64,000 nucleotides of DNA. Source: a virus. Within the stretch, counting starts at the first letter, position 1. The number at the start of each line of letters is the position of its first letter. This document shows positions 1 to 43,382 of this stretch, in pieces. The notes beneath the pieces were generated by a model. That model searched no databases. It saw only the letters and a list, made by a program, of their open reading frames with translations, and had not been told where the DNA came from. The DNA is taken from positions 46,858 to 110,857 of the IMG/VR virus record IMGVR_UViG_3300011113_000257; one strand, given 5' to 3'. Position numbers and translations under genes: made by a program.

Positions 1-126
1 TAATAACACATCTCCCTGACATTTGCAAATTATCTTTTCCGCGTGTCCCCTGACCTAAAAAATTTCAGTTATCTAACTCAGCGCAAAAAGAACCCCGCAC
101 TTTCGCACGGGGAACTTTTTGTTTGG

Positions 127-285
127 TTAAAGTATTTCTCCTACTGTTGCTTCCTCGCAAGGGTCGCAAATCCAACCCTCTACTCCGTGCTGGTCAAAAG
201 GAATCATAGTGTCCTTGCATTCAACGCATACAACGTATTTTGTCCCGTCTGTAGACGTAGCAACTAAACTATCTAATGCGTTCAT
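127..285 (-). CDS. 52-aa CxxC-CxxC Zn-ribbon microprotein (not in ORF track)
   Basis: Hand translation MNALDSLVATSTDGTKYVVCVECKDTMIPFDQHGVEGWICDPCEEATVGEIL*; SD GGAGG upstream; terminator hairpin follows. Confidence 0.75.
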   Translation of the reverse strand: MNALDSLVATSTDGTKYVVCVECKDTMIPFDQHGVEGWICDPCEEATVGEIL

Positions 286-287
286 CT

Positions 288-476
288 TTACACCTCCCCT
301 GCTTCTAAAGTTTCAAAGTAGTTGTTCACATCAACAATCGAGCAAGGCTCGCATTGTTCATAACCTCCGTCAAGACTGAACTTGTCTAGCGCGTTACCGC
401 ACTCTACGCACTTCTCATCTTCGCCTAGTGCTTCTTCCGCACCGCGTAGTAGCCATTCATCAAATCCTTGTAGCAC
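288..476 (-). CDS. small acidic Zn-ribbon protein
   Basis: CVEC...CEPC; GTG start at 476 after SD GAAAGGGAGG, downstream of promoter 504-532. Confidence 0.7.
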   Translation of the reverse strand: MLQGFDEWLLRGAEEALGEDEKCVECGNALDKFSLDGGYEQCEPCSIVDVNNYFETLEAGEV

Positions 477-583
477 TTTGCTACCTCCCTTTCTTGTATT
501 CCCATTGTAGCGCATTAGCCTGACATTCGCAAGTTACCGCGCAAAAAGAAAGAGCGAGCCTTTCGGCTCGCCCCTCCTAGAGT

Positions 584-994
584 TTAGTAAGTAGCAAAGG
601 TTCGATTAGAGCCTAAGTCCTTAGCAAATTCGTAGATGTGTTCAAGGTTGATTGTTTTGCTTTCGCCCTTGTTGTTGAAAGCAACCGTGTCGCCTTGAAA
701 GTAACGATACTTTTCCCAACCAACCGAGATAATTACCGCAACCCAGTCGTCTTGTAGGTGTCGCTTGAATACTTCTGCCCAGTCTACCTCGACAGTTTCA
801 TCTTCTTCTTCACTCCACACACTCCATAGGTTTGCTTCACCGTCTGGGTCAGCGTCAATAAATCCGTAAAGTGTTACGCCGTCTTTCTCTTGCGTAATTA
901 CTTCAACAGGATAGTTTGCAAGTTCTGTCTTAAACGCTTCCGCGTCTTTAACTGCAAAGTAGTTGCTTCGTGCCTGACCAAAAAATTGAGCCAT
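584..994 (-). CDS. hypothetical phage protein
   Basis: 136-aa ORF with own promoter (1039-1067), leader hairpin, SD GAAGGGA and terminator at about 543-580. Confidence 0.8.
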   Translation of the reverse strand: MAQFFGQARSNYFAVKDAEAFKTELANYPVEVITQEKDGVTLYGFIDADPDGEANLWSVWSEEEDETVEVDWAEVFKRHLQDDWVAVIISVGWEKYRYFQGDTVAFNNKGESKTINLEHIYEFAKDLGSNRTFATY

Positions 995-1044
995 TTCTTA
1001 TCCCTTCCGCAAGTAAGCCCTTCTTACTCGCTGTATCTATAATA

Positions 1045-1308
1045 CTAAATTACTTGACTATTGTCAAACTCTCCTTGTAAGAGTCCGCAACTTTTGCACA
1101 CGAAATCATCTATCTCAAGTTCGTAAAAGTATCTGTGCTCGCAGTCTACGCGCCAAATTGAATAACACTCGCAAGCAAAACAACGGTGCTTATCTTCGCC
1201 GAGTTCGATTACCTCATCTTTTTGGATAATCCAATTACAAGTATCACACCGAAAAGATTTCACTTTTTCATTCGAGTTGTTGCTGACGTAAATCCATTCC
1301 TCTGACAT
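1045..1308 (-). CDS. Cys-rich Zn-ribbon protein
   Basis: CDTC, CFACEC, CEH, CKSC; TAATG-coupled to upstream gene. Confidence 0.75.
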   Translation of the reverse strand: MSEEWIYVSNNSNEKVKSFRCDTCNWIIQKDEVIELGEDKHRCFACECYSIWRVDCEHRYFYELEIDDFVCKSCGLLQGEFDNSQVI

Positions 1309-1409
1309 TAATCGTTCCCTTGTTCATAGCAGTTGTAGCAAGTCCAACCGCTTTCGATTAGGTCATCATCTAGCAAGTCGCATTGGCAGTTTATGGTGTC
1401 CGCGTTCAT
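1308..1409 (-). CDS. 33-aa Cys-rich acidic microprotein (not in ORF track)
   Basis: MNADTINCQCDLLDDDLIESGWTCYNCYEQGND*; TAATG overlaps on both sides. Confidence 0.7.
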   Translation of the reverse strand: MNADTINCQCDLLDDDLIESGWTCYNCYEQGND

Positions 1410-1633
1410 TAGAACACTCTCCCATACTCGTTTTCAACTACTGATAAATCAACAGGTGATGTAACTTCCCATTGTTCGTATGGTGTTGGGTCGTAACTAT
1501 CTCGGCATTCGTTACACCATAGTTCGGGAAACCAACGGTGCTTTTTAGACATTTCGGCGATTGGAAAGTCTTGTTCGCAATCCACGCAAAAATCGTTTTC
1601 TTCTGGTATTTCAACTCCAAGCCATTGTGTCAT
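1409..1633 (-). CDS. small acidic Zn-ribbon protein
   Basis: CVDC...CNEC; SD AAAGGAG. Confidence 0.75.
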   Translation of the reverse strand: MTQWLGVEIPEENDFCVDCEQDFPIAEMSKKHRWFPELWCNECRDSYDPTPYEQWEVTSPVDLSVVENEYGRVF

Positions 1634-1737
1634 TTTGTTCTCCTTTTTGTTTTCGCGGGCTATCCGCTTAGTAATACTTTATCATACTATTTTGTTTGGT
1701 GCAAGTAGTAGGGGGCTTGCGCCCCCCACCGCATTTG

Positions 1738-1908
1738 CTAAACGTATTCACATACTAGTTCTAGTAAATCCGCGTAAGTTTCTACCCCATTTAATAAGCC
1801 GTAGATAGCGTCTGTTAGTTCTGTAGAGTTCCTGATAGTTTCAACTAGCAAACTTTCCTCAACTAGCAAGTCACCTGCAAGACAACGAATTGTCATTTCT
1901 GCACTCAT
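1738..1908 (-). CDS. 56-aa acidic hypothetical protein (not in ORF track)
   Basis: MSAEMTIRCLAGDLLVEES...; SD GAAAGGGA, promoter 1950-1978, terminator at about 1710-1727. Confidence 0.7.
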   Translation of the reverse strand: MSAEMTIRCLAGDLLVEESLLVETIRNSTELTDAIYGLLNGVETYADLLELVCEYV

Positions 1909-1982
1909 TTTGGTTTCCCTTTCTTGTAAGGAGTTTCCTTACATTTCTAATAGTACGGACTTTCTTGACATTTGTCAAGTGA

Positions 1983-2135
1983 TTACGCAAACTCGTTTAT
2001 TGCGTGTCGGCGTTGGGCAGACCTGTCACGATTACGGCGTGTACGCCTATCCGCAAACTTTGCAGACTTTTGGTTTAGGACATAGTTCCCTCGACCTGTC
2101 ACTAGATTGTCTAGTGGACTCTTGCGCTTAGCCAT
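1983..2135 (-). CDS. 50-aa arginine-rich basic protein (not in ORF track)
   Basis: MAKRKSPLDNLVTGRGNYVLNQKSAKFADRRTRRNRDRSAQRRHAINEFA*; SD GAAAGGAG, promoter 2159-2187. Confidence 0.75.
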   Translation of the reverse strand: MAKRKSPLDNLVTGRGNYVLNQKSAKFADRRTRRNRDRSAQRRHAINEFA

Positions 2136-2286
2136 CTCTGACTCCTTTCGATAAATCTATTGTAGCACACTTCCCTGACATTATCAAATCGAACCGCGCT
2201 CGGCGTGTCGCAATTTAATAATCTCCGTAAAAAATTTCAGTTATGAAAATAAGAAAACCCCCACTTTTGGTGGGGGCTTCCTTGCC

Positions 2287-2595
2287 TTACATAAATCGGT
2301 GGTAGAACTCTACTACCTTTTCCCGTGCCTCTTTCCAGTCTGCCGTAGCGCAGATAGTGACTGTCTGCTCGATACCATTCACATCATCTACCCAACCTAT
2401 GGCTTCATAGATAGTCACGCCGTCATCATAGTCATAGACCCTGACTTCGGCATCTACCGTTTCGTTCATCTCGATAGTGATTGCGTTGTCTGTTACTGGG
2501 TTAAGTAGCACCCGTGTAATTCGACTTGCTGGGTGGCGTAGCGTGGCTAGAAATAATCTAGTGGTTTCGCTGTATGTTGGAATTGTAGTTTCCAC
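2287..2595 (-). CDS. hypothetical phage protein
   Basis: GTG start with SD AAAGGGG, leader hairpin, terminator at about 2255-2283. Confidence 0.75.
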   Translation of the reverse strand: METTIPTYSETTRLFLATLRHPASRITRVLLNPVTDNAITIEMNETVDAEVRVYDYDDGVTIYEAIGWVDDVNGIEQTVTICATADWKEAREKVVEFYHRFM

Positions 2596-2728
2596 TTTTG
2601 TTTTACCCCTTTTGAGTTATCTACCGCGCCTTGCGGTATGTAGTAATCGTATCATACCTTTATGACATTTTCTGTATTTCGAGAAAATAAACCCCGCCCG
2701 TAGGCGGGGCTTATCTCGAGTATCCGCA

Positions 2729-3244
2729 TTAGCAGATAGAGAACCCACCGCTTTCGGCTAAGAACTCCGCGAACTCGCGTACGTTCTGAACATCAAACGG
2801 GTAACTTGCTGCCCAATTCTCTTTTGAGCCAACACCGTCACAACCATTACACCAGCCGAACTCGCGCCCGACAAGGATAGCCACTTCTGGTGATAAGGCT
2901 CGGTCAGGCTGACCCGCACTCACGCCAACTTCATCTGTACGAATACCTGTTGAATTGCAGTGCTTACAATCCTCGCGTGGTAAATCCGCAATCTCTGCGT
3001 AGTAGTCTTTTTGGTACTGGGCGGTATGTCCTCGACCAATCTTTTCAAACAAGATGTTTGATAAAGCAATCGCGCCTTCGGCGTTTAGCCCATCTCCATC
3101 ATTGTATTCACCACTTACTTCTGAAGTAAGTTCAGGTGCAACTTCAATGCAGTAATTCCAAAGTGGTCGCCACCACCATACATTGTTGCGGAAGTATTCA
3201 CCGCGCTCTGTTGTCGGTGCAGTTCCAAAAACGTCCATTCCCAT
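2729..3244 (-). CDS. conserved phage protein (MGMD...YFRNNVWWWRPLW type) with CxxCxxxG Zn-finger insertion
   Basis: Start re-called at MGMDVF (SD GAAGGGA; promoter 3289-3317 lies inside the longer track ORF); CKHCNSTG...CNGCDGVG. Confidence 0.8.
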   Translation of the reverse strand: MGMDVFGTAPTTERGEYFRNNVWWWRPLWNYCIEVAPELTSEVSGEYNDGDGLNAEGAIALSNILFEKIGRGHTAQYQKDYYAEIADLPREDCKHCNSTGIRTDEVGVSAGQPDRALSPEVAILVGREFGWCNGCDGVGSKENWAASYPFDVQNVREFAEFLAESGGFSIC

Positions 3245-3412
3245 TTGGGTTTCCCTTCTGTAAGCAAGTCCCTCTTGCTCACTCTGTGAGTTTATCATAC
3301 TAGCCTGACATTCGCAACTCAAACGAAAAACTTTTTTCGTGTCGCCATAACTGAAATTTTTTAAGTAGGCAACAAAAAATCCGCGCAATCTTCCGCGCGG
3401 ACTTTCTTTTGT

Positions 3413-3679
3413 TTAGAACTTGTAGGTGATGTTAAAGTCTTTCCGCGTGAACGGGATAAAGGTTTCCCCGTACTCCACATCTCCAGCGTAATTTGTACCG
3501 ATTTCGTAGCGAACTACAATCTCATCATTCTCTACGAACACGCTAACTAATTCTGAAAGATAACTTGTAGTCGCGTAATCTCTCCAGTTAGTTGTGATGT
3601 CCTCGATAGCGGTGTCTATTGTGTCATACAAAACTTCGCCGTCTACTTCGATAATGTCTATTGTTCTCACGTCTGACAT
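3413..3679 (-). CDS. acidic hypothetical protein
   Basis: Start MSDVRT with SD GAGAGG; promoter 3720-3748. Confidence 0.75.
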   Translation of the reverse strand: MSDVRTIDIIEVDGEVLYDTIDTAIEDITTNWRDYATTSYLSELVSVFVENDEIVVRYEIGTNYAGDVEYGETFIPFTRKDFNITYKF

Positions 3680-3751
3680 TTTGTTTCCTCTCTTTCGCAA
3701 CCCCTTGTTGCTAGTACCTAGCGTACCCTACTTCCCTGACATTTGCAAGTT

Positions 3752-3783
3752 GAAAAAGGGGCGAGTTTCCCCGCCCCCTTTTC
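3752..3783 (-). terminator. representative intrinsic terminator of the early cassettes
   Basis: AAGGGGCG/CGCCCCCTT GC stem flanked by A/T runs; similar hairpins at about 86-120, 543-580, 1710-1727, 2255-2283, 2688-2712, 3379-3402, 6066-6095, 6926-6960, 8925-8960, 10570-10607, 11217-11262. Confidence 0.75.
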
Positions 3784-3798
3784 GTGCGCCCTCCGCGC

Positions 3799-4272
3799 TT
3801 ACCAAGAACTCTTGTAAGCAAAACTCCAGCCCTCTGGAACTTTAGAGAGTATGCGCCCAAGTTGAACAAGGGTATCTTCAACCTGTTCCCAATACCACTC
3901 GTCAATCTCATACGAGCCGAAGAAGAAACCTGCTTGAGTTGGTAGCAATTCTTCCGCCAACTCTTTGTTCTTGCTTTTCCAAACTTTCATACAGACATCA
4001 TTTAATTCCTGCAACTGCTCTCGGCTAACGTAATACTCCGCGCAATTATCTTCACCCTCTTGCACGTTGTCCACGAACCATTGGTGTATCTGGTTAGCCT
4101 TGCGCCAGTAGCCAACTTTTACCTTGACCGTAATTGACGGGTACTCCTCGTTCTCGAAATCTCCTGCGCCAATCGCATCAGAAACTTTTGCGTATGCATC
4201 TCTGGTTGCTTGTTCTTGCCATTCGCCACCTGATAGGTAGTTACTTGCATAAAGGTACTGGTCTAGTCCCAT
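3799..4272 (-). CDS. conserved phage protein (MGLD...YWRKANQIH type)
   Basis: Start re-called at MGLDQY; motifs YWRKANQIHQWF and LLPTQAGFFFGS; promoter 4317-4345. Confidence 0.8.
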   Translation of the reverse strand: MGLDQYLYASNYLSGGEWQEQATRDAYAKVSDAIGAGDFENEEYPSITVKVKVGYWRKANQIHQWFVDNVQEGEDNCAEYYVSREQLQELNDVCMKVWKSKNKELAEELLPTQAGFFFGSYEIDEWYWEQVEDTLVQLGRILSKVPEGWSFAYKSSW

Positions 4273-4440
4273 TTTGTTTTCCCTTCCGTAAGCAAGTCCG
4301 TCTTGCTCACTCTGTAAGTTTATCATACTAGCCTGACATTTGCAACCTGAACGCGAAACTATTTTTTCCGCGCCCGCGCCAGAAAAAATTTCAGTTTTCA
4401 ATTTGAGATAAACGCGGATTTCTCCGCGCTCTCTCGTTTG

Positions 4441-4833
4441 TTATTCGACTTCGTTATCCGCAAGGATTTGCTTGACGGCTTCAATCGCTTCCTCTAGAGT
4501 TTCGCAAACTTCCCACCACTCATCGTCAGCCTTTGGCTCATAGAACTCAAACCAATTATTATTCACCCAGACATCTTGCTCTGCGTGTGCCGTGTTGAAC
4601 TCTGCCAACTTCGTGTCCGTGTCAATCCCTGCGGAGATTAGGTCGCTTGTGTAACGCCAGACATCTCCGTTAGGTAGGTTGATACGCATCTCGCCGTTAG
4701 ACCCAATGTGAAACTCTCGGTCGCCCGACTTAACTACGGCTAGAACTTCCCAGCCGTTAGTCCAGCAATAGAACGCCGAGTCTGTCTGCTCTGGGTTCTG
4801 CTCTACTAAATACTCAACCGTGTAATCCATCAC
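4441..4833 (-). CDS. acidic hypothetical protein
   Basis: 130-aa ORF, last in the operon from promoter 5466-5495. Confidence 0.75.
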   Translation of the reverse strand: MMDYTVEYLVEQNPEQTDSAFYCWTNGWEVLAVVKSGDREFHIGSNGEMRINLPNGDVWRYTSDLISAGIDTDTKLAEFNTAHAEQDVWVNNNWFEFYEPKADDEWWEVCETLEEAIEAVKQILADNEVE

Positions 4834-4838
4834 GCCAC

Positions 4839-5108
4839 CTAGTCCTCGTCTGACTCAACTCGGACACCGCAAGTAAAACACTTTAAGTTTTCCCAGTCAG
4901 GGTACTCGTAGCAAGTATCGTGGATACAGTCGTTAGTATCGAACACCGCGCCAAGTAGTTCCAACAAACCGTCAAGGTACTCTACGGGGAACGCTTTCAT
5001 CTCGCCGTACTTTGACGGTAAGGAAACAACTCCCGACATAATGTCCTCTGAAAGTTCCGCAAGAAAGTCAAACTGCTCTTGCAACATTTCATAGTCAATG
5101 TTTTTCAT
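4839..5108 (-). CDS. acidic protein with C-terminal CxH/CxxC Zn ribbon
   Basis: CIH...CFTC; ATGA overlap. Confidence 0.7.
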   Translation of the reverse strand: MKNIDYEMLQEQFDFLAELSEDIMSGVVSLPSKYGEMKAFPVEYLDGLLELLGAVFDTNDCIHDTCYEYPDWENLKCFTCGVRVESDED

Positions 5109-5422
5109 TTTGTTTTCTCCCCATTGAGTTCTAGCAACACCGCATTTAGAGTGTCGTAAAGTTCTTCGTCTTTTGCGTAGTTCGCATCATTGTCAATCGC
5201 GTGAGTCCACTCATTTGTTGCCGTGTCGTAAACAGTTCCGTCAAAGTAACGAGTTTCATTTTCAATGTTCCACTTGCCTGTTTCGGTATCGAAACACACT
5301 ACATAGTGATGCTGTGTAGTTGAGGGGTAGTAACCCTGCTCGCCTTCACAAGTTTTGCAGAACGGTGTGCAGTCGAAACCGCCCCCGTGTTCTGGACACT
5401 CAACCATTTCTAGTTTGCTCAT
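5105..5422 (-). CDS. Cys-rich hypothetical protein
   Basis: CPEH-GGGFDCTPFCKTCEG motif; SD GAAAGGGA. Confidence 0.75.
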   Translation of the reverse strand: MSKLEMVECPEHGGGFDCTPFCKTCEGEQGYYPSTTQHHYVVCFDTETGKWNIENETRYFDGTVYDTATNEWTHAIDNDANYAKDEELYDTLNAVLLELNGEKTK

Positions 5423-5516
5423 TTTGTTTCCCTTTCTTAGAGTGAGTCCCTCTCGCTCTATGATAAGTATACGCCCCTAGCCTGACATTTGTCAAATCAG
5501 GGGCGCACACCGCGTG

Positions 5517-5753
5517 TTACCAATTCAGTTCTTCGCCATTCTCGTCTTGGAAGATTAAGTCACTCGTATCTGCCGTGTGACCCCAACCGCAACTAAAGTC
5601 ATTCTCAATCCACACTTCAACTCTCTGCATAATGTCCCACAGGGTTATTTCACTATGTGGAGTTTCAGTTTCCGCGTGTATGTCGTTAGCAATCTGGTTT
5701 ACGTCATACGAGACAACTTTCATCACGTTAATGCGTTCTGGTAATTCTCTCAT
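5517..5753 (-). CDS. acidic hypothetical protein
   Basis: TAATG-coupled ORF. Confidence 0.7.
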   Translation of the reverse strand: MRELPERINVMKVVSYDVNQIANDIHAETETPHSEITLWDIMQRVEVWIENDFSCGWGHTADTSDLIFQDENGEELNW

Positions 5754-5920
5754 TATTTCTCCATTCCGTGTCCAACGTGGACTAATCTAATTTCTGGCTC
5801 GCCGACTTCGATTCCCCAGCCATTCTTTAGTAGTTCTAATGCTTCTTCTTCGCTAGTGCAAAGTTTAAGATTCTTAGAGTCAATCTCTAATGTCTTGATT
5901 ACTTGAAACTCGTAACGCAT
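5753..5920 (-). CDS. small hypothetical protein
   Basis: Start re-called at MRYEFQ (SD GAAGGGA), promoter 5963-5991. Confidence 0.7.
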   Translation of the reverse strand: MRYEFQVIKTLEIDSKNLKLCTSEEEALELLKNGWGIEVGEPEIRLVHVGHGMEK

Positions 5921-6101
5921 TTGGTTTCCCTTCCTTAGCAAGCCCTTCTTGCTAATAACTCTATGATACATCAATACCCTGACATTTGCAACTTGAACAC
6001 GAAATTATCTTTTCCCGTGCCTTCGCTGAGTTCCGCATAAAAAATTTCAGTTTTGTGAAACCAAGAAACCCCTAGCCTTTCGGCTAAGGGCATCTTTTGG
6101 A

Positions 6102-6278
6102 TTAGGCGGTGATTAGTCCCTCGTCTATCAAGGTGCTGGCAATTCTGCCGTAAGAACCTTGCAGTTGCCACGCTAGTCGCGTATCAACTAGTTGCTGAAA
6201 CAAGTTAATTGTTTCTTCTCTGTCAAGATTACCTTCTTCGAACTCGATGATTAAGTTCGTGATGTCGTGTAGTGACAT
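6102..6278 (-). CDS. small conserved phage protein (LFQ.LVD..LAWQLQGSYGR type)
   Basis: Start MSLHDI with SD GAAAGGGA; promoter 6321-6350. Confidence 0.75.
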   Translation of the reverse strand: MSLHDITNLIIEFEEGNLDREETINLFQQLVDTRLAWQLQGSYGRIASTLIDEGLITA

Positions 6279-6370
6279 TTGCTTCCCTTTCGTATTCGCC
6301 GTACTTCGGCTTATGTAGTAAGGATACACTAAACCCCTGACATTTGTCAAGGGCTTAGTGTCCCGTGTCT

Positions 6371-6799
6371 TTAGTCTTCTTCTTCGTACTCATCTTCGTC
6401 TTCGTCTTCGTCTTCGTCTTCGTCTTCACGGCATCTGTCGCAGATTGAGTCATAGTCCGCGCCAGACTCGCCACATAGTTGGCAAAACTCGTCTTCGTAT
6501 CCCTGTGGGATTATGCTTTCGTATCCCTCGTTAGGGTCGTCCTCGTTAGTTGCTACTGATTGCACAAACTTTAGCCCGCAAGAGCCTTCGTACCAACGCT
6601 TGACTAGGGTAAGCATTTCGTCAGGGGTTGAGTCGGTAACAAGGAAACTTCCGTCCTCGCCATAGCCCCACTCTGCACTCTGCTTGACTTGCTGGTCGTC
6701 TTTCAAGATGTAAATCTTGTGACAACCATCAAACGAGATGCCTTTGGCTTCGTCAAGTTCTGCCTTAACTTCGTCCCAGATGTCTTGGAAAGTAGTCAT
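6371..6799 (-). CDS. acidic protein with C-terminal Zn ribbon and poly-D/E tail
   Basis: FDGCHKIY motif, CQLC..CDRC, EDEDEDEDEDEDEYEEED tail encoded by (GACGAA)n. Confidence 0.8.
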   Translation of the reverse strand: MTTFQDIWDEVKAELDEAKGISFDGCHKIYILKDDQQVKQSAEWGYGEDGSFLVTDSTPDEMLTLVKRWYEGSCGLKFVQSVATNEDDPNEGYESIIPQGYEDEFCQLCGESGADYDSICDRCREDEDEDEDEDEDEYEEED

Positions 6800-7032
6800 T
6801 TTGATTTCCCTTTCTATCAGTAAGCCTTTCTTGCTGATAAAACTATCATACCACACTATCCTGACATTACCTAATCGGGGCTTTAGCGCGTGTCGCAGAA
6901 AAAATTTCAGTTATCTAAAATTACGAAACCCGTACCAAAAAAATTTCAGTACGGGCTTCGCTTAGAAACTGTCGGAAGGCTGACACACGCTGGAAGGACG
7001 ATACCCCCCGACAGGGCTTATGGGTTATTCAA

Positions 7033-8841
7033 TTATCCGTTACGGTTTCCCATAGCGGTTAGTGCTTTCGCACACGCTTGTCCGATAGCGTTGGACGCTT
7101 CCGTTGGAGAAGCCACACCGCTTAACGGCTCTACCGTTGTCCCCCTTAGGAGACTTCTGGCACTTGAACCGTTGTCGAACGGTATCCATACTACCGCCAC
7201 GCCGTTGCTCTCACACTGCGACACCCAACTCCGAGCCTTTTGGGTCTCGTCGTAAGTGTACACGCCGTCGGATACCACGACTAAAAGCCTAGCACCGTCA
7301 CCGTTGAGCAGGTTCAACTCGCCGTCTATTGCCTTGAACGCCTTGTCAAACTTTTCCGTACCGTCTGGTGCTGTGTACACCGTTACGTCCGTTAAGTGCT
7401 GACCAGACTTGAGCGTAGGGAACACGTCGTCGCCGTAGTACACCATCGCGCACTTGCCTTGGACTCGCCGAGTTGCTTCCGACATTACCCACGCCGTTGT
7501 CGCCATCGGTTGCATCGCCGAATTCATCGAACCGCTAATGTCTACCATCACGCCGACCTTTAGTGTTGGCTCGTCCGTTGTCTTACGGACTCGCTTACGC
7601 CAAGGTTGCGCCGTTGGTTGCATACCTATCGCCTTGTGTGCTTCGTTCTGCATAGCCGAGCGAGTTCGTAGCCGTCCACCGGGAACAATGCTACGCACTT
7701 CAACAACATCGCGCTCGCGATACTTTGCACGCTCTAATGCGCTCGCCACTTTCACCGCGCTGATACGCTCGTCTGCCGTAGGCTTACGAACCTCTGTTGC
7801 ATAACTACGAGTACGAGTAGATGCTGATGGACCAGTACCTCGCCCGAAAACTTCTTGAGCAACTTTAACATTCTCACGACTTTGCTTTGCACTGTCCGCG
7901 CGATTCTTAACTTCCTCTTTCCATTCCTCTGACTCCTCTTGGTCTGCAAGTTCGGAGTAGTTAGACACCGCAACATTTTCAGATGCTTCTTTCAACTTCT
8001 CAAGTAACTCTTTTAATGCTTCGCCAACTTCAGATGTAGACTCACCACTTCCACCAGAAGTACTTTCACTACCAGAATTATCCTCGCCACGTTCGTTTGC
8101 AAGGTCGCGAACAATCTGTGCCCACTCACGCGCTAATGGATAAACAGGTTCCATGTTTCGATGGTCTGTGTGTGTAATGAAACGCTCGATAACACTGCAT
8201 AACTTTTCAACAGTTTCGTTGCCTAAGTATTCCTCTATAAATTCTGTAACCTCTAGAACATCATCACGCTCTAAAATTCCACCAATGATTCGACCATGCA
8301 CTAGTCCAACTAAAGTTGCAATGTTTGAAACACTACCCTGTGTCAAATCCTCTGACTCAAAATCTGCAATAACAATTTCCATTGCACTTGAGCATAGAAA
8401 TGCGCGATACCGAGCATCAAGCAAAATACCTTGTGCTTCGATTCGTGATTCCTCAAGAAGCATTAGTGCTTCGTACTCGTCTGACTTTAATGCTTCGTAA
8501 GCAGACTCTAAACTCCACTTCGAGAAACGAGCGTGAAATGCTTCGTGCATTATCGCGCCAGTTGCCTTTGGAAATTCGTACTGCGTTGAGCGTTGATTAA
8601 TGTCGCTAATGTGTTCTGGCTTAATGCCAAACCCGAAAGCAATTTCTGTGTTCACTTCAATTTCTGCAATCGCTGGCTTGTAGCACGCTGGCGCATTGCT
8701 ACCTGCAACAGGAGATGCAAGTCCAACTAAATCACCGCGACCTGCGATTGAGTTTGCTAGTTGCGCAATCTGCGAACCAACTGCATACCATTCTGGATGT
8801 CTTTCACCAGAAGTCTTACTGTGTGTGTCAATGTGTGCCAT
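7033..8841 (-). CDS. VWA-domain protein with N-terminal HExxH metallopeptidase-like motif (CobT-like MoxR partner)
   Basis: HEAFH, LEESRIE, MIDAS DISGSM and VVSDG; start re-called at MAHIDT after promoter 8885-8913 and SD. Confidence 0.85.
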   Translation of the reverse strand: MAHIDTHSKTSGERHPEWYAVGSQIAQLANSIAGRGDLVGLASPVAGSNAPACYKPAIAEIEVNTEIAFGFGIKPEHISDINQRSTQYEFPKATGAIMHEAFHARFSKWSLESAYEALKSDEYEALMLLEESRIEAQGILLDARYRAFLCSSAMEIVIADFESEDLTQGSVSNIATLVGLVHGRIIGGILERDDVLEVTEFIEEYLGNETVEKLCSVIERFITHTDHRNMEPVYPLAREWAQIVRDLANERGEDNSGSESTSGGSGESTSEVGEALKELLEKLKEASENVAVSNYSELADQEESEEWKEEVKNRADSAKQSRENVKVAQEVFGRGTGPSASTRTRSYATEVRKPTADERISAVKVASALERAKYRERDVVEVRSIVPGGRLRTRSAMQNEAHKAIGMQPTAQPWRKRVRKTTDEPTLKVGVMVDISGSMNSAMQPMATTAWVMSEATRRVQGKCAMVYYGDDVFPTLKSGQHLTDVTVYTAPDGTEKFDKAFKAIDGELNLLNGDGARLLVVVSDGVYTYDETQKARSWVSQCESNGVAVVWIPFDNGSSARSLLRGTTVEPLSGVASPTEASNAIGQACAKALTAMGNRNG

Positions 8842-8978
8842 CTCTGGCTCCTTCCTTTTGTACGCCCCTTTGACGTACTCTGTGAGTTTATCATACCTTC
8901 TTGATATTTCCAAATTGAAGGGTGGGGAGTCGGGAAACACTCACGAAAACCGACTCCCCTTAGCAAGGATGAAAGGGA

Positions 8979-10010
8979 CTAAATCCTTGCTGGCTTGTAT
9001 TCCGCACCAAACACGCGAGACAGAACATCTGCCACGATTGGTCTGTCCATCTCTGGTGCAGAAGCAAGTAAGTTCGAGATACCAAACGGAACCCCGAATG
9101 TTGTAACGATGTCGCGGAACGCTAAAAGTTCGCGCATCTGTGGAGCCCACGAGACTTCACCAGACTCTTGTTTCTTAGCAAGATTCTGCGCAACAGTAAC
9201 GAGGTTGCTAGGTACACCTAAGGTGCGAGCAAGTGACCAGTCAGTTGCCATCTCTGCTTGAACAGTAAAGCGAGATAGTAAGGCTTCTGAAAGTCGTACT
9301 CCCGGAGCATTAGGGTTAGTTGCACCCACAACATAAAAGTCAGGGTGAACCTTAACAGTACCTCTGTCAGGATTAGCAGTGACAGTAATTTCGCCACGTC
9401 CATCCATCACGCCATACAAACCTGAAAGTTGCTTAGGGTCAATCAGACCAATCTCGTCAATGAACAAGACTGCACCTTCCTCTACTGCTCGCACAAGTGG
9501 ACCATCTACCCACTCGAAACCACCAGCAGGATTCTGTACGAACCCACCAAGGAAGTCTGACATTTCGATGTCAGCAGTTCCAAGTACTGTGTACATATTT
9601 CCACCAAACGCTGCTTCGACTAATGCAGTCTTACCAGTTCCCGGTGCGCCATAAAGCAACGCGAACATTGGCGAGCCAACTTTGTCTGTGACAGACAAGG
9701 TAGTTGCTTCACGAGCCTTGCGTAATGTTGCAACATCTTGATGTTCACCCCAAGTACGAGCGTGGTACACACTTCCATTTGGACGAATGTATTGACTACT
9801 ACTTGATTCAAGTGTGACACCTGATGTTGTAATTGGTGTCGCTACGCGAGCAACGCGAGGTGCGCGTTCTACGAAACGACCTTGTGGTAAAACCTGCGAG
9901 ATTACTCTCATAGATGCTTCTGTTGATACTGACTGCGCAACCATGTCGTCTAACATGGAAGTGAATTCAGTTCCCCACTTTGAATAAATTTCATTTTCTT
10001 TGATGCTCAT
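8979..10010 (-). CDS. MoxR/CbbQ/CobS-type AAA+ ATPase
   Basis: Walker A GAPGTGKT, WVDGPL, Walker B LFIDE, ATNP, ALLSRF. Confidence 0.9.
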   Translation of the reverse strand: MSIKENEIYSKWGTEFTSMLDDMVAQSVSTEASMRVISQVLPQGRFVERAPRVARVATPITTSGVTLESSSSQYIRPNGSVYHARTWGEHQDVATLRKAREATTLSVTDKVGSPMFALLYGAPGTGKTALVEAAFGGNMYTVLGTADIEMSDFLGGFVQNPAGGFEWVDGPLVRAVEEGAVLFIDEIGLIDPKQLSGLYGVMDGRGEITVTANPDRGTVKVHPDFYVVGATNPNAPGVRLSEALLSRFTVQAEMATDWSLARTLGVPSNLVTVAQNLAKKQESGEVSWAPQMRELLAFRDIVTTFGVPFGISNLLASAPEMDRPIVADVLSRVFGAEYKPARI

Positions 10011-10026
10011 AATTTTCAGTCCCTTT

Positions 10027-10494
10027 CTACGCTGTGAACATTTCTGGATAAGATAATGCAGTTCGAGTCTGGTTGATTCGATGCACGACCTTAGTTGGAG
10101 TCTTACCTTCTGTTACATCTGTCAAGTCTTTCTGTGAAACTTCCACAAAAAATGGCTTGCCAATAAGTACGCTACTAATTGAAACGCGCTTCATAAACCA
10201 CGCTAGTGTTTGAAGTCGCTCCTCGCGATGGTTCTCTGATGTAACCCCTGTTGCTGGGTCTACGAGACTACGCTGAAGTGCTTGCACCTTCCATTGTTTC
10301 TTTGGCTGTGATGCCGAAAGACGACGATAGTAGACACGCGCTGTCGAAAAATTTCCAAGTTCATTCCAACCATCTGGAGTAATGAACATCTGAAAAATCT
10401 GTTGGTATTCATTCTTGAATTCCGCGTACAAGGCTGTGCCCTGTACTTTCTTTTCTGGGTCTGTAAGCAGACCAAGAGGTGTTTCTGTTGACAT
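10027..10494 (-). CDS. hypothetical protein
   Basis: 155-aa ORF; promoter 10541-10569; SD GAAAGGA. Confidence 0.75.
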   Translation of the reverse strand: MSTETPLGLLTDPEKKVQGTALYAEFKNEYQQIFQMFITPDGWNELGNFSTARVYYRRLSASQPKKQWKVQALQRSLVDPATGVTSENHREERLQTLAWFMKRVSISSVLIGKPFFVEVSQKDLTDVTEGKTPTKVVHRINQTRTALSYPEMFTA

Positions 10495-10618
10495 AGTGAG
10501 TATTTCCTTTCTTTATGTCTTTTGTCCCTGTGACATTTCTAGTTTAGCATAACGCTATGATGGAGTCAAATCGGGGTAGGAGTATGTCTAAGGAGACCTA
10601 CCCCGACCTGACTTCTAA

Positions 10619-10951
10619 CTACTTAGCGACAATGATGTCGTAAGTAGAAACCTTTGAACAGGTTTCGTATGCTTCTGGATAAACTTCTTTCAGAAGCGTT
10701 GAGTCCACATTGGTGCGTGAACGTGGTGCAAGTTCCACTACTGGAAGCCCTGCGACAGTACCAACCTTGGCAGAACCAATTAGGTCACGAATTGCGCTGT
10801 CAAGTTCTGACTTTGCTTTTTCGAGTTCCTTGATTGCAAGTTTTGCGTTAGCAAAATCTGCAAGCAGGTTCGCGATGTTGGTGTTGTCCAATTCAACGGT
10901 GGACGTTTCCGTGACAACCTGTGTTGTCGTTACCTGTGTGCGTATGCTCAC
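10619..10951 (-). CDS. coiled-coil protein resembling the C-terminal part of YqaJ/Gp157-like phage proteins
   Basis: LAIKELEKAKSELDSAIR...VDSTLLKEVYPEAY; GTG start after SD GAAAGGGG. Confidence 0.55.
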   Translation of the reverse strand: MSIRTQVTTTQVVTETSTVELDNTNIANLLADFANAKLAIKELEKAKSELDSAIRDLIGSAKVGTVAGLPVVELAPRSRTNVDSTLLKEVYPEAYETCSKVSTYDIIVAK

Positions 10952-11265
10952 TTTGGCGATTCCCCTTTCAAGGAAAGTTCGATAGACCATCTAACGAACA
11001 GTTCTAACTTTACGCCCTACACCTGACATTTGTCAAATCGAGCGTTTCCACCCCGATTTCTCGGGCTGTTTTCGTTCATAGAACCAATGTAACACATTAC
11101 CCTGACATCCGCAAGTTTATTTGATAACGATTTGATAACGGACCGGGAACTGAAATTTTTTAGTTCCGGGTTGTTGAAGGCGGGCTCCAATAAAAAATTT
11201 CACTTTTGGGCAAAAAGAAACCCCCGTTCGAAACTCACTGGTTTCGATTTAACGGGGGTTGGTCT

Positions 11266-11454
11266 TTAGAGTTCTTGCTCCCACTTTTCGATGTCAAACA
11301 TTTCCCAGATTTCATCATCTGTGAAATTTTCCTTCAACCAAATAGCGGTGCGCTTTTGGACTACTGGGTTTTCGTCTACTGGCTTAGCAGTTCCGAAGAT
11401 GCTACCCATAAGGGCTTGGTATGCGTGTGCGTTTGCTTCATGCGGTTTGTTCAT
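11266..11454 (-). CDS. small hypothetical protein, leaderless
   Basis: ATG lies 6 nt after -10 TACCGT. Confidence 0.65.
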   Translation of the reverse strand: MNKPHEANAHAYQALMGSIFGTAKPVDENPVVQKRTAIWLKENFTDDEIWEMFDIEKWEQEL

Positions 11455-11915
11455 ACTCCTACGGTAACACGAGGCACTGACATTTCTTCAGGTGTCCAAA
11501 TGTAGGGGAGGTCACTTGGCGTATCGGGAAAAAATTCAGAGTAGTACTCAGGGGCTTTGCGCAAGAGATTCGAGCGGTGCGATTCGTGGAACCGTGAGTT
11601 CCCGATGAACCAAGGCAAGCCTTCGTACCGCTTACCTTGCACCGTTAGGTCTCGCATCTTCTCGATGAAGTACGGTAGCAGGTTGTCGACATACCCTCTC
11701 CGTTTCCACTCCAGCGACATTATTGAACCGTAGTACGCGAGTGCGAACTCGTGCCCACGCCACATCTTGGTCGCAGGGTGGTTGACCCAACCCGTTGTCT
11801 CGCCGTTGAGCGCCATCAGTATTTGCTTGGTCTCAACCCGTTGCTTCCCGAGCCGTCGGTAGTCCAATACCCTCGCCGTCTTTTCAAAATCGGCGTATGG
11901 CAGGAACGTCTGCAT
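11451..11915 (-). CDS. pyrimidine-dimer DNA glycosylase/endonuclease V-like protein (MSMEG_6728 family)
   Basis: MQTFLPY...LDYRRLGKQRVE...NHPATKMWRG...SHRSNLLRK...Y. Confidence 0.85.
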   Translation of the reverse strand: MQTFLPYADFEKTARVLDYRRLGKQRVETKQILMALNGETTGWVNHPATKMWRGHEFALAYYGSIMSLEWKRRGYVDNLLPYFIEKMRDLTVQGKRYEGLPWFIGNSRFHESHRSNLLRKAPEYYSEFFPDTPSDLPYIWTPEEMSVPRVTVGV

Positions 11916-12076
11916 TAGCCCTCGCCGTTCTCTCGAACTAGCGCGATGGCTCTCGCCATGCCTGCAGACCAACCGTCGTTAAACGCGACATCCGTCTCGT
12001 CCATTTCCTCAGCGTCCGTCATGTCTTCTTCGGTTACCCGTTCCCACTCCTCCATTAAAATTTCTAATAGTGTCAT
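11915..12076 (-). CDS. small acidic protein
   Basis: MTLLEILMEEW..., ATGA-coupled. Confidence 0.6.
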   Translation of the reverse strand: MTLLEILMEEWERVTEEDMTDAEEMDETDVAFNDGWSAGMARAIALVRENGEG

Positions 12077-12234
12077 GTGGTCACGCCCGCTAACGCCCAC
12101 GCCTTCTTGAGGTCGCGGTCGAAGTCGCGTTGCAACTTATCCCACGCCGTTTCGTCAAAAAGGATTGGGTGCGCCTCTTGCTTATTTCTGCTAAGCACTC
12201 GCCGTATAAAAGATTTCAGTTCCGTGTAGTTCAT
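12073..12234 (-). CDS. 53-aa hypothetical protein (not in ORF track)
   Basis: MNYTELKSFIRRVLSRNK...; SD AGGAGGAG, leader hairpin, TTGACA-17-TAAAGT promoter. Confidence 0.7.
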   Translation of the reverse strand: MNYTELKSFIRRVLSRNKQEAHPILFDETAWDKLQRDFDRDLKKAWALAGVTT

Positions 12235-12312
12235 GTTCTTGCTCCTCCTTTGTTTTGCGGGGCACGCCGTGTGCCTCGCCGTCGTGATGTATTAACTTTA
12301 TGATAAAAGTTT

Positions 12313-12597
12313 CTAGATGTCAAGCGCGTACTCTGGGAGTTCCATCCCTGCCCCAACTAACGCGCGCCGTATTAAACCTTGCTGACGCGAAGTTGTCTGC
12401 GAGTATTTATCTACGTTCAGATAAGTAACCTGACGTTTTTCTGTGTTTATACTAGCCATCCGTGTTGAGTAAGAGTAGATGTCGTAGATGATGTCGCCAC
12501 CAGCGTCGCACCATTTCGAGGCTCTCATGCTGTGACCGTGCTTGAATGGTTTGAATGCTGGAATAAATTCTTCTGCAATTTCTTTGTAACTAGGCAT
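12313..12597 (-). CDS. conserved phage hypothetical protein (YSYST...KYSQTTSRQQ type)
   Basis: 94-aa ORF; promoter 12640-12668. Confidence 0.75.
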   Translation of the reverse strand: MPSYKEIAEEFIPAFKPFKHGHSMRASKWCDAGGDIIYDIYSYSTRMASINTEKRQVTYLNVDKYSQTTSRQQGLIRRALVGAGMELPEYALDI

Positions 12598-12682
12598 TTT
12601 TATTTCCCTTCCCGTTGATGTGTCTCACCAACAAGAACCATTCTATCATACCAACCTGACATTCGCAACTTAAGGCACGCCA

Positions 12683-13036
12683 TTAGATTTCTTCAGTGTC
12701 TTCCATTAGTTCAGGAAGATTTTCCTCAACCATCTCCCAGAAGGTATCAAAAATTTCGATATTCTCTCGAACCTCTTCAACGGGTGCATCGTATTCAATG
12801 GTAACGATTTCGTGGACGTGCTCTTCGTCTTCCTCAACGTGGTGAGTTCGAAACACATAGTCACCGTCTTCGGTGATTAGGTAATTAATAAACATCACGG
12901 AGCACTCAGATGTGAGCGCGACTTGGTATGTCTCGGTTAGGGGGTCGTAGATAGGACAGCAAGCAGAAATGATGTCGTGCATGTAGTGCCCTTTTTTGAT
13001 GACACGGCTTGGGTGAATGTTGTTCGGTTTGTTCAT
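12683..13036 (-). CDS. very acidic hypothetical protein, leaderless
   Basis: ATG at 13036 lies 6 nt after -10 of promoter 13043-13071. Confidence 0.7.
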   Translation of the reverse strand: MNKPNNIHPSRVIKKGHYMHDIISACCPIYDPLTETYQVALTSECSVMFINYLITEDGDYVFRTHHVEEDEEHVHEIVTIEYDAPVEEVRENIEIFDTFWEMVEENLPELMEDTEEI

Positions 13037-13270
13037 ACTAGCAGTATTGCACATCCGTCTGACATTTCCAAATCGGGCTCAGGGCACACCGTTTAAAAAA
13101 TTTCAGTTTTGAGTTTGCACGGATGGATTTTGCGGTCCTAGCCCGGAAAATATAAAAAGGAGGCGGGTGGCCTGGGCGGCTCTTCCAGGCTAAGCGGTTT
13201 AACCGTTTAAAAGATTGCGTCAACAATCAGGGCGGCTAGAATAAGCGCCCCGAGAAATGCAAAAGGAAAT

Positions 13271-27590: not shown

Positions 27591-27619
27591 TTGACACCAC
27601 TCTAGGCTTTTTGTAGCCT
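27591..27619 (+). promoter_or_regulatory. sigma-A-type promoter TTGACA-17-TAGCCT with no downstream CDS
   Basis: Perfect -35 and 17-bp spacer; predicted +1 (27626) is the first base of a hairpin. Confidence 0.75.
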
Positions 27620-27625
27620 ATACAT

Positions 27626-27802
27626 AGTTCTTGATGTATTAGGTGTTTTCTGCCAGTTCTACTAATACACCAAGACTTTTCGCAGAAATGTGGTTTGTTC
27701 TCCTTTCCTACATTTTTTTGGAAGCGGGTTGCTCCGCCACTTGCGAACACGGAGCATATATAAAAACCGCCCCACCGAATTTAATTCTGCGTAGGGCGGT
27801 TT
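27626..27802 (+). ncRNA. putative three-hairpin small RNA with anti-Shine-Dalgarno loop
   Basis: Stems 27626-27642/27662-27677, 27684-27693/27708-27717, 27730-27736/27750-27756; loop 2 UUUGUUCUCCUUUC; ends in a terminator. Confidence 0.65.
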
Positions 27803-27806
27803 ATTT
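27764..27806. terminator. bidirectional intrinsic terminator
   Basis: AAACCGCCC...GGGCGGTTT with A/T tails, between the sRNA and the convergent NlpC/P60 gene. Confidence 0.75.
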
Positions 27807-42171: not shown

Positions 42172-43382
42172 TGTCTGAAAGTTTTGCAAAAAAAGTTTTA
42201 GAAGAGTTAGCAACTCCAGGACAAACTGGCTCAGATAGACGTTTGCAAGACACCCCTGAAGCATGGAAACCTCGTATGGACATTGACCATAAAACAGGTG
42301 GCTTTGTTGTAAGTACTCCACGACCAGCAGGTAATACCGCAGATGCAGATGCAATCCTACGAGATTTTGATTTAGACCCTGCTTCTTGGCGAGTCACAAG
42401 TGTGCGCCAAAGTAAGTGGCAGTCTGCTAACCAAGAATGGCTTGAATCCTATCGAGTATCTGTTGTACCAGCAGATATGGTTGCAGAAGAAGATGTAGTT
42501 GATATAGAAAAACTTATTGATGAAGTAAAAAAGTGGAAGCCAGAAAAAGGTATTAAAAAAATATCTGGAAAAGGCGCATACGTTATAGTTCCAAGTGACC
42601 AACAAATTGGTAAAAAAGCAAATGGACAAGGCACTGCAGAGTCTGTAGCAAGAATTCTTGACTTAACTGACAGCGCACTTGCTCGTTATAAAGAACTTGT
42701 AAAAATAGGTCGTCCATTAGGAACAGTTGCTTTTTTATTGGCAGGTGACCACGTTGAAGGTAACGTATCTCAGAATGGTCGCTTACAAAGTCCAGCAGCG
42801 TCAGACTTAGGTCAGACAGAGCAGACTCGTGTTGCTCGTAGAGTACTCATGCAACAAATTAAAGCGTTTGCTCCTCACTGCGAAGAACTAATTATTGCAG
42901 TAGTTAACGGAAACCATGATGAAGTAACGCGACAAGTTGTGGCAGACCCTTCAGATGGTTGGAACGTAGAGATTGCTTCAGCAGTACAGGATGCCTGCGC
43001 AGAAAATCCAGCATTATCTCATGTTAAATTTCGCTACCCAGAAAAAGACCACCAAACACTTACTGTAAATATTTGCGGAACCCTTGTTGGGCTTTTTCAT
43101 GGACACCAAAGTGGTAAGGACGTAACTAAATATTTATCGGGACAGGCAGCAGGTCAAACTGCACTTGGACAAGCAGACATGTGGGTATCTGGTCACTACC
43201 ACCACTTCAAGGCTCTTGATGTTGGTTCGCGTTTATGGTTACAGGCTCCAACTACTGACCCAGGCTCTCCTTGGTGGCGTGACCGTTCAGGTTTAGAAAG
43301 TAAGCCAGGACTACTAACATTTACAGTTGGTGAAGATTTAGACCCACGCGGAGATATCAGCGTGATTCAAACAAAACTATAA
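42171..43382 (+). CDS. calcineurin-like metallophosphoesterase (Mre11-like)
   Basis: SDQQIG, GDHVEG, GNHD, HGH, GHYHH. Confidence 0.85.
   Translation: MSESFAKKVLEELATPGQTGSDRRLQDTPEAWKPRMDIDHKTGGFVVSTPRPAGNTADADAILRDFDLDPASWRVTSVRQSKWQSANQEWLESYRVSVVPADMVAEEDVVDIEKLIDEVKKWKPEKGIKKISGKGAYVIVPSDQQIGKKANGQGTAESVARILDLTDSALARYKELVKIGRPLGTVAFLLAGDHVEGNVSQNGRLQSPAASDLGQTEQTRVARRVLMQQIKAFAPHCEELIIAVVNGNHDEVTRQVVADPSDGWNVEIASAVQDACAENPALSHVKFRYPEKDHQTLTVNICGTLVGLFHGHQSGKDVTKYLSGQAAGQTALGQADMWVSGHYHHFKALDVGSRLWLQAPTTDPGSPWWRDRSGLESKPGLLTFTVGEDLDPRGDISVIQTKL

Follow-up and report, generated by a model that had tools for sequence, protein, structure and literature searches.

A 5' leader hairpin with a conserved ARGGR loop precedes most early genes of a predicted actinobacteriophage

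The early region of the viral contig analysed here is a succession of short transcription cassettes, most of which open with an RNA hairpin whose stem sequence varies freely while its five-base loop follows the consensus A-R-G-G-R, and this leader hairpin is the subject of the present study. The window, by which we mean the whole stretch of 64,000 nucleotides (nt) under analysis, corresponds to G000:46858-110857, the 64 kb at the right end of an IMG/VR viral contig of 110,857 bp from an uncultured lake phage (IMGVR_UViG_3300011113_000257; contig G000), with a CheckV completeness of 83%. Its early region covers window positions 1-13,100 on the minus strand and continues for about 9 kb of the contig beyond the window. 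In each early cassette, a promoter is followed by a leader of some 40 nt, by one to three small open reading frames (ORFs) and by a terminator. The promoters are sigma-70-like (TTGACA/TTGCAA-N17-TAnnnT), frequently with the motif ATGTCAGG in the spacer, and the pattern TTGMNAATGTCAGG was found 11 times, exclusively on the minus strand, as compared to zero occurrences of the reversed control. Two WhiB-family genes are encoded on the contig, and the nearest relatives of its DNA polymerase are the lake metagenome-assembled genome (MAG) 'Actinomycetia phage DSL-LC01' (76%; PMC10611076) and Microbacterium phages (56-58%). Judging from these genes, the host is therefore an actinobacterium. A search for host relationships with the RNR homologue gave mixed matches, to Actinomycetota and to other MAG contigs, and a megablast comparison of the early region with 50,697 phage records returned zero matches.

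A first-pass annotation, made from the letters of the window, had listed sixteen minus-strand hairpins in early leaders, with stems of 4-10 bp and loops of 5 nt. All sixteen fold (Table 1), but three are looser than they had been drawn, as the loops AAACU (1925) and AUGGU (10977) can be closed further to triloops and the 4-bp stem below ACAGG (10523) is weak. The placement of the hairpins between transcription start and Shine-Dalgarno (SD) sequence agrees with our analysis: each lies 3' of a TTGnnn-N16-18-TAnnnT promoter and 5' of a purine-rich SD and a start codon, with promoters that are near-consensus instead of exact matches for the hairpins at 2622 and 6815. The number sixteen, by contrast, was an undercount, since about 31 early leaders are present across the contig. 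A 5' hairpin was found in 27 of them, and 25 of these hairpins can be drawn with an A-first pentaloop. The additional hairpins lie partly outside the window, and the total includes three on the plus strand, which follow a different class of promoter. AAGGG is the most frequent of the 25 loops (nine copies), AGGGA, AAAGG, AAGUA and AUGGU are present twice each, and ACGGA, AGGAA, AAGGC, ACGGC, ACAGG, AGACA, AUAGC and AAACU once each. Genome-wide, all AAGGG pentaloop hairpins with a stem of at least 5 bp (9/9) are located just 5' of an SD and an ATG.

Table 1. Leader hairpins in the early region of the window (window coordinates; loops are given as RNA).
Position	Strand	Feature	Stem	Loop	Context
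1009..1031	-	5' leader hairpin	9 bp (1 G.U)	AAGGG	promoter 1067; SD GGAAGGGA directly 3'
1655..1667	-	5' leader hairpin	4 bp	AUAGC	promoter 1704
1925..1943	-	5' leader hairpin	7 bp	AAACU	promoter 1978; minimum-free-energy fold: 8-bp stem, triloop AAC
2622..2638	-	5' leader hairpin	6 bp	AAGGC	promoter with weak -35 and extended -10
3261..3281	-	5' leader hairpin	8-9 bp (1 G.U)	AGGGA	promoter 3317; near-duplicate of the 4288 cassette
3697..3711	-	5' leader hairpin	5 bp	AAGGG	identical stem in L010 bears AGGGA
4288..4310	-	5' leader hairpin	9 bp (1 G.U)	ACGGA	promoter 4345
5438..5460	-	5' leader hairpin	8 bp + one C.A mismatch	AGGGA	promoter 5495
5935..5955	-	5' leader hairpin	8 bp	AAGGG	promoter 5991
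6298..6310	-	5' leader hairpin	4 bp	AAGUA	promoter 6350
6815..6839	-	5' leader hairpin	9 bp + one C.A mismatch	AAAGG	promoter with ATGTCAGG spacer at 6867
8860..8878	-	5' leader hairpin of vWA-like gene	7 bp (1 G.U)	AAAGG	orthologous leaders: hairpin kept, stems changed
10523..10535	-	weak hairpin	4 bp	ACAGG	minimum-free-energy fold prefers 5-bp stem with 12-nt loop ACAGGGACAAAA
10977..10999	-	5' leader hairpin	8 bp + U.U mismatch	AUGGU (or UGG)	orthologues covary (G-C to A-U)
12261..12275	-	leader hairpin	5 bp (extendable to 8)	ACGGC	starts 15 nt after -10, furthest of the set
12611..12635	-	5' leader hairpin	10-12 bp (3 G.U)	AGACA	promoter 12668

The stems of these hairpins differ in sequence yet keep their pairing, as had been noted in the first pass. 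In an ungapped alignment of 12 hairpins of the window, 88% of the cells are paired, as compared to 54% in shuffled alignments and 30-39% when the pairing partner is slid along. Double-sided changes are present at all pairs (7/7) and the covariation score was reached by none of 500 shuffles, although the rows had been picked as hairpins, so that this covariation is supportive and not independent. Independent support comes from related phages, in which the loop AGGGA is found on 19 different stems. Across 41 pentaloop hairpins of the relatives, which were taken without any filter on the loop, the stem columns contain 0.03-0.5 bits of information as compared to 1.72 bits at the first loop position, and the loop reads A (39/41), R, R/G, G (30/41), A (30/41). 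G.U pairs outnumber A.C/C.A mismatches by 32 to 4, and therefore it is the sense RNA that folds. We infer that the near-invariant A at the first loop position may keep the loop open: where position 5 is a purine, a first base other than A could form a pair with it (U-A, U.G, C-G or a sheared G.A), and the exposed patch would become smaller.

For a comparison with chance expectation, 80 related IMG/VR loci were retrieved via the neighbouring MoxR-like ATPase gene, and leaders were selected with a structure-blind filter for a promoter and a ribosome-binding site (RBS), which was passed by 446 leaders on the coding strand and by 22 on the opposite strand. The 329 unique leaders from the 80 loci were then compared with 20 sets of dinucleotide shuffles. 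We observed 174 hairpins close to the 5' end as compared to a shuffle mean of 107, 78 pentaloops as compared to 14, 62 A-first pentaloops as compared to 7.05, and 37 A-first pentaloops containing GG as compared to 1.55, with a maximum of 4 in any shuffled set. Both loop length and the A at the loop start, the two properties singled out in the first-pass annotation, are hence enriched over shuffled leader hairpins. The pattern is also not shared by terminators: among 204 terminator-like hairpins from the same genomes, loops peak at 4 nt, and only 5 of 34 pentaloops start with A, none of the 34 combining the A with GG. The loop pattern thus exceeds chance. A covariance model built from the 12 window hairpins, another check that had been proposed, retrieved 26 matches in 592 kb of sequence from relatives, 23 of which are on the coding strand and about 19 in a promoter-hairpin-SD context; the model is small and no single match is significant (best E = 0.13), so that its information lies in the enrichment for strand and context.

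The anatomy of the element was derived from 46 unique instances that have both a promoter and an SD around the hairpin. Counted from the -10 hexamer, the stem starts at a distance of 5-7 nt in 28/46 and of 3-8 nt in 38/46 instances, so that a transcript starting where promoter geometry predicts would have 0-2 unpaired nt before the stem. Stems are 5-12 bp long and are mostly closed by a G-C (24) or C-G (18) pair next to the loop. The SD purine run begins 0-10 nt 3' of the stem and the start codon follows at 9-27 nt, the distance between loop and SD being 10-26 nt. Two other functions that such a hairpin might have were considered and rejected. If the loop were itself the SD of an upstream ORF or leader peptide, a start codon should follow it, yet 4-9 nt past the loop an ATG is present in 0/46 and any start codon in 4/46 instances. 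A function as terminator or attenuator is likewise not borne out, as a T-rich tail is present in 1/46 instances and terminator loops differ in both length and sequence. A complement of the loop within 120 nt downstream, which could form a pseudoknot in cis, was seen in 2/46 instances against a background of 2%.

AGGGA is the commonest loop in the related IMG/VR phages, where it is carried by unrelated stems, and it is mainly in the closest relatives (L010, L011, L074, L012, L014, L018, L022 and L028) that ARGGR loops are found. The stem GCAAC/GUUGC bears the loop AAGGG in the phage studied here and AGGGA in L010, and these two loops are therefore interchangeable variants. In the leaders of the genes for the vWA-like protein and for a protein of 110 amino acids (p110), the 5' hairpin is kept across relatives whose proteins are only 30-45% identical; the stems of these orthologous leaders have been changed by compensatory substitutions and the loops are often different. 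In distant relatives as well, 5' hairpins tend to persist in orthologous leaders with other loops. As the hairpin is kept in divergent orthologues with other loops, it is the older feature and the ARGGR loop a clade-specific refinement. The vWA-gene leaders of the distant relatives L043, L046, L047, L063 and L064 are without a hairpin; they are unstructured and contain two or three tandem SD-like AGGACAA repeats. DSL-LC01 (L099) uses another type of promoter, and our promoter-anchored scan yielded almost nothing in this genome. A lone look-alike, a promoter-hairpin-SD leader with AGAGG as its loop, is present at position 23790 of L100 (Microbacterium phage Pumpernickel), a genome with tightly packed genes: it reads GUCGUGUCC AGAGG GGGCACGG, followed by AAAGGACA, and may offer an entry point for experiments in a cultured phage.

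The top core of the early RBSs (GAAAGGGAAAC), AAAGGGA, contains three windows of 5 nt, and these are identical to the loops AAAGG, AAGGG and AGGGA; it follows from this match that the loop puts a further copy of the early RBS core on display. Over the whole contig, AAGGG is found in 13/37 early RBSs as compared to 4/73 others, and GGGA in 18/37 as compared to 10/73. The loops are SD-like over 4-5 nt, with AAGGG and AGGGA needing a G.U pair with the anti-SD sequence.

Further RNA structures are encoded on the contig. A hairpin covers the stop codon of the MoxR-like ATPase gene (window 8950-8985, minus strand), and its 12-nt loop UUAGUCCCUUUC is complementary to the RBS of the same gene, GAAAGGGACUGA (approximately 10014-10026). 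Using ATPase loci of relatives located by tblastn, we found that this loop and the RBS covary in about ten related phages (L011, L012, L020, L022, L029, L046, L063, L074 and L085), and that the hairpin is absent in L014, L018, L035 and L042. Such a pairing resembles the interactions of the icaR 3' untranslated region (UTR) with its SD and of the hbs 5' and 3' UTRs (PMC3868564, PMC5737220). About 3.8 kb before the window and just upstream of an early promoter (G000 42,900-43,060, minus strand), two long-stem hairpins lie side by side, one with the loop UUGCCCCCCCUUUCU and the other with the loop UUAUCCCCUUUC and a stem of 20 bp, and their homologues in L014, L018 and L028 have a conserved stem, GCGCGUCACC, and the loops GUAAUCCCUUUAA and UUAUUCCCUUUU. 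On the plus strand of the window, positions 27591-27806 encode a candidate structured RNA driven by a promoter (-69 kcal/mol, z = -4.5); its loop UUUGUUCUCCUUUC contains CUCCUUUC, which we take to be identical to the 16S rRNA 3' end and thus a possible anti-SD mimic. The presence of the 5' hairpins together with adjacent, covarying anti-RBS loops suggests a wider layer of RNA-based translational control in this phage group.

Taken together, the leader element is a real RNA signal, which probably protects and marks the early messages. Its placement at the predicted extreme 5' terminus of the mRNA, which the first-pass annotation had not emphasised, suggests protection of this end in the first place, and because of this 5'-terminal position, the sequence-free stems and the retention of the structure in divergent orthologues, a 5' protective hairpin is the best supported function. 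The reading that we favour, albeit tentatively and at somewhat less than even confidence, is that of a 5'-terminal protective hairpin with a loop that serves as an extra docking or stand-by patch for the ribosome. In this model, the sigma-70-type RNA polymerase of the host would make an early mRNA that starts with the stem-loop. Any pairing stem, closed by G-C or C-G, would be sufficient to cap the 5' end, so that decay pathways which depend on this end (RNase J, RNase E or pyrophosphohydrolase) would be kept from the message. The open ARGGR loop would display a second AAAGGGA-type core a few bases 5' of the real SD, and this exposed purine patch would most likely provide an added docking or stand-by contact for the 30S subunit. 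The contact with the ribosome would add a stabilisation of the STAB-SD/polypurine kind, resulting in fast and strong early expression. A number of observations speak against this proposal. The transcription starts are derived from promoter geometry alone, and leaders of about 40 nt force any leader element to be near the 5' end. Four early leaders of the contig are without a hairpin, and hairpin-free early leaders include those at window 532 and 2187 as well as CA-rich leaders in L011. As to the loop, the ratio of AAGGG plus AGGGA to AAGGA plus AGGAG in the relatives is 21:2 in loops but 114:80 in RBSs (Fisher p = 0.0024), and AGGAG, the best match to the anti-SD, was found zero times as a loop. 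This GGG bias is not predicted by simple selection for anti-SD pairing, and five loop nucleotides enclosed by a stem are badly placed to form a 5-bp helix with 16S rRNA.

Due to the GGG bias and the tight positional rule of the loop, a dedicated partner remains in play, and it is possible, if less likely than the protective hairpin with a docking patch, that the ARGGR loop is an address label for a trans-acting partner, either a CsrA-like or phage protein or RNAs with UCCCUUU anti-RBS loops, which would set the stability or the translation of the whole early regulon jointly and thereby act as a phage-wide post-transcriptional switch from early to middle expression in an actinobacterial host. 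A cis RNA element for a common RNA-binding factor is also what the first-pass annotation had envisaged. The cis element itself is upheld by our results, as it is found on most early genes with sense-strand G.U pairs, covarying stems and a constrained loop; the factor is not, since Pfam searches with 20 early ORFs identified zero RNA-binding families (the matches were confined to DUF7417, a pyrimidine-dimer glycosylase and weak, noise-like zinc-finger hits) and CsrA (PF02599) was not found in the contig, which is 83% complete. Binding of the loop by a dedicated protein, be it a host protein of the CsrA/RsmA type or an early or middle phage protein such as a RegB-like nuclease or a translational repressor, to switch or stabilise the early regulon, appears rather doubtful to us. 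AGGGA, ACGGA and AAGGA are exact ANGGA loops, AGGGA being the top loop of the relatives, and most RBSs contain AGGGA or AAGGA, both among the top RBS 5-mers, at a distance from the loop that is within the bridging range of CsrA. The strict preference for A1, G4 and A5 and the absence of AGGAG loops would suit a protein ligand, and among 401 sampled Actinomycetota genomes, 70 have a CsrA match above the curated cut-off, some of these genomes being 1.3-1.8 Mb in size. In addition, unpaired GGA is the target of T4 RegB, both in early RBSs and in a small hairpin RNA (PMC3014915). On the other hand, 12/25 loops of this genome (AAGGG, AAAGG and AAGGC) are without GGA at the identical place, a single stem can bear AAGGG here and AGGGA in L010, the spacing between loop and SD is variable, and 83% of the 401 sampled Actinomycetota are without CsrA.

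We regard it as unlikely that the 5' loops contact the C-rich anti-RBS loops of the phage (loop core UCCCUUU), which belong to hairpins at the 3' end of early units and in a separate candidate small RNA, and that these hairpins, by pairing with early RBSs and kissing the 5' loops, shut off, sort or circularise the early mRNAs. UCCCUUU is an exact complement of AAAGGGA, so that AAAGG, AAGGG and AGGGA are its 5-nt complements; long-stem UCCCUUU loops are present at window 8982 (UUAGUCCCUUUC) and at G000 42957 and 43001 and are conserved in L011, L014, L018 and L028. The covariation of the ATPase 3' loop with the ATPase RBS across about ten phages implies that pairing between a loop and an RBS is under selection, the GGG bias of the 5' loops fits CCC loops better than the CUCC of 16S rRNA, and GGGA-type RBSs are specific for early genes. 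However, complementarity to UCCCUUU is inseparable from the simpler view that the loop copies the RBS, purine loops of 5 nt are not classical kissing partners, and most early cassettes end with ordinary terminators that have GAAA or UACG loops. The C-rich RNAs are, moreover, predictions from sequence, and a partner in cis within 120 nt is no more frequent than background. Still less probable is an explanation in which the stem alone matters as a generic 5' cap, the loop being a passenger of duplicated cassettes or kept purine-rich in order to avoid pairing with the purine SD. The cassettes are indeed paralogous, with nearly identical leaders behind the promoters at 3317 and 4345, the 5' hairpins of distant relatives bear many other loops, and some loops read AAAUA, AAAAA or AGAAA. 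Yet one and the same loop is found on at least 19 unrelated stems, the loop columns are far more conserved than the stem columns, which is the opposite of neutral drift, and the enrichment of GG is retained against shuffles that keep composition. A loading site for antitermination of the boxB/nut type, at which RNA polymerase would be modified to read through the terminators between cassettes, is very improbable: a short stem with a pentaloop just 3' of the promoter and strong terminators at the end of most cassettes would be in line with it, but boxB loops are G-first and GNRA-like whereas 95% of the loops described here are A-first, the element accompanies each early promoter (about 27 copies in the contig) instead of being limited to one or two sites in the genome, and each cassette has its own promoter, making read-through unneeded; a boxA-like partner was not noticed, and no systematic boxA search was made. 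We give least credence of all to an operator at the DNA level, in which a repressor would bind the inverted repeat between +1 and +25. The inverted repeat does overlap the predicted start site, but its arms have no conserved sequence, the pairing holds on one strand as seen from the ratio of G.U to A.C, and the conserved part is the asymmetric centre.

Two additional features of the early region were observed. Contigs of strains that are 90-99% similar, assembled from lake metagenomes, join across whole cassettes in window 1-13,200 and skip, for instance, 2194-3332, 2679-3338 or 4838-5325, indicating that early cassettes are gained and lost as units. Furthermore, a box, CTGAAATTTTTT / AAAAAATTTCAG, is repeated in both orientations between terminators and the following early promoter, with sites at window 2250, 3360, 4395, 6050, 6910, 11155, 11205, 13110, 14440 and 14490, among others.

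Little has been mapped of how actinobacteria and their phages exert post-transcriptional control; to our knowledge, actinobacteria have no Hfq or ProQ and few cis-acting RNA motifs are known from them. The element described here is compact (15-25 nt), is present in about 25 copies in one genome and recurs across a clade of abundant lake phages, its stem being rebuilt by compensatory change while its loop is held. If it acts as a stabiliser and ribosome-docking cap, this would explain fast early expression and provide a portable 5' UTR part for expression in actinobacteria. If the loop instead has a dedicated partner, it would represent a switch acting on a whole regulon, for which there is no described example among phages of the actinobacterial phylum.

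The ARGGR-loop leader element is apparently undescribed, as the first-pass annotation had supposed: no Rfam family matches it, and at a permissive E-value four sub-threshold matches (18.8-27.7 bits as compared to gathering thresholds of 50-88) were obtained near terminators, none of them on the hairpins. The paper on DSL-LC01 makes no mention of such an element (PMC10611076). Of the two analogies put forward in the first pass, that with CsrA/RsmA targets fits in part. Common to both are AGGGA, ACGGA or AAGGA loops on short stems, the loops that dominate in the relatives, and, at the RBS 10-26 nt further on, another AGGGA or AAGGA. The loops AAGGG, AAAGG and AAGGC, which dominate in this genome, do not conform, and known CsrA/RsmA regulons are cellular whereas the one described here is a phage early regulon in which half of the loops are without GGA and for which no CsrA was found in the contig. 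The analogy with boxB of lambda and P22 does not hold for the loop. The two elements have in common a stem of 5-7 bp with a pentaloop just after early promoters, but boxB has a G-first, GNRA-like pentaloop (GAAAA, GAAGA or GACAA), is present at one or two sites together with boxA and binds N. In Cluster K mycobacteriophages and Cluster EF Microbacterium phages, the start-associated sequence (SAS) and extended start-associated sequence (ESAS) consist of a conserved motif overlapping the RBS and an inverted repeat just upstream, and are found at a subset of genes (PMC3203893, PMC7302621). Like the leader hairpins, they are specific for actinophages and repeated upstream of a subset of genes; in ESAS, however, the 17-bp arms are conserved and the spacer is variable, whereas here the arms are variable, the 5-nt centre is conserved and the promoters are of the sigma-70 type.

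Closer parallels are found among mRNA stabilisers, some of them from the phylum of the host and from phages. According to PMC2358910 and the references cited there, the katG mRNA of mycobacteria is stabilised by a polypurine sequence, and STAB-SD and the polypurine stabiliser of phage SP82 act likewise in Bacillus. With these sequences, as known from B. thuringiensis cryIIIA, SP82 early RNA and katG, the leader hairpins share SD-like purines close to the 5' end that are not used for initiation, and SP82 provides a precedent in a phage early transcript. The stabilisers are linear runs of 8-9 nt with a good match to the anti-SD, whereas here 5 nt are displayed in a closed loop and AGGAG is avoided. 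The gyrase mRNA of M. smegmatis is protected by a 5' stem-loop that is followed by an SD (PMC2358910), and together with E. coli ompA and papA and B. subtilis aprE and ermC it exemplifies a type of stabilising stem-loop to which the present element conforms in having a hairpin within a few nt of the predicted 5' end, an SD after it and a stem of free sequence. Stem-loops of the ompA/gyrase type belong to single genes and are not known to have a conserved loop; here, ARGGR is shared across about 25 leaders and related phages. We class the element with a known kind, as a putative 5' stabilising leader hairpin, and what is new is a conserved loop that extends over a whole regulon.

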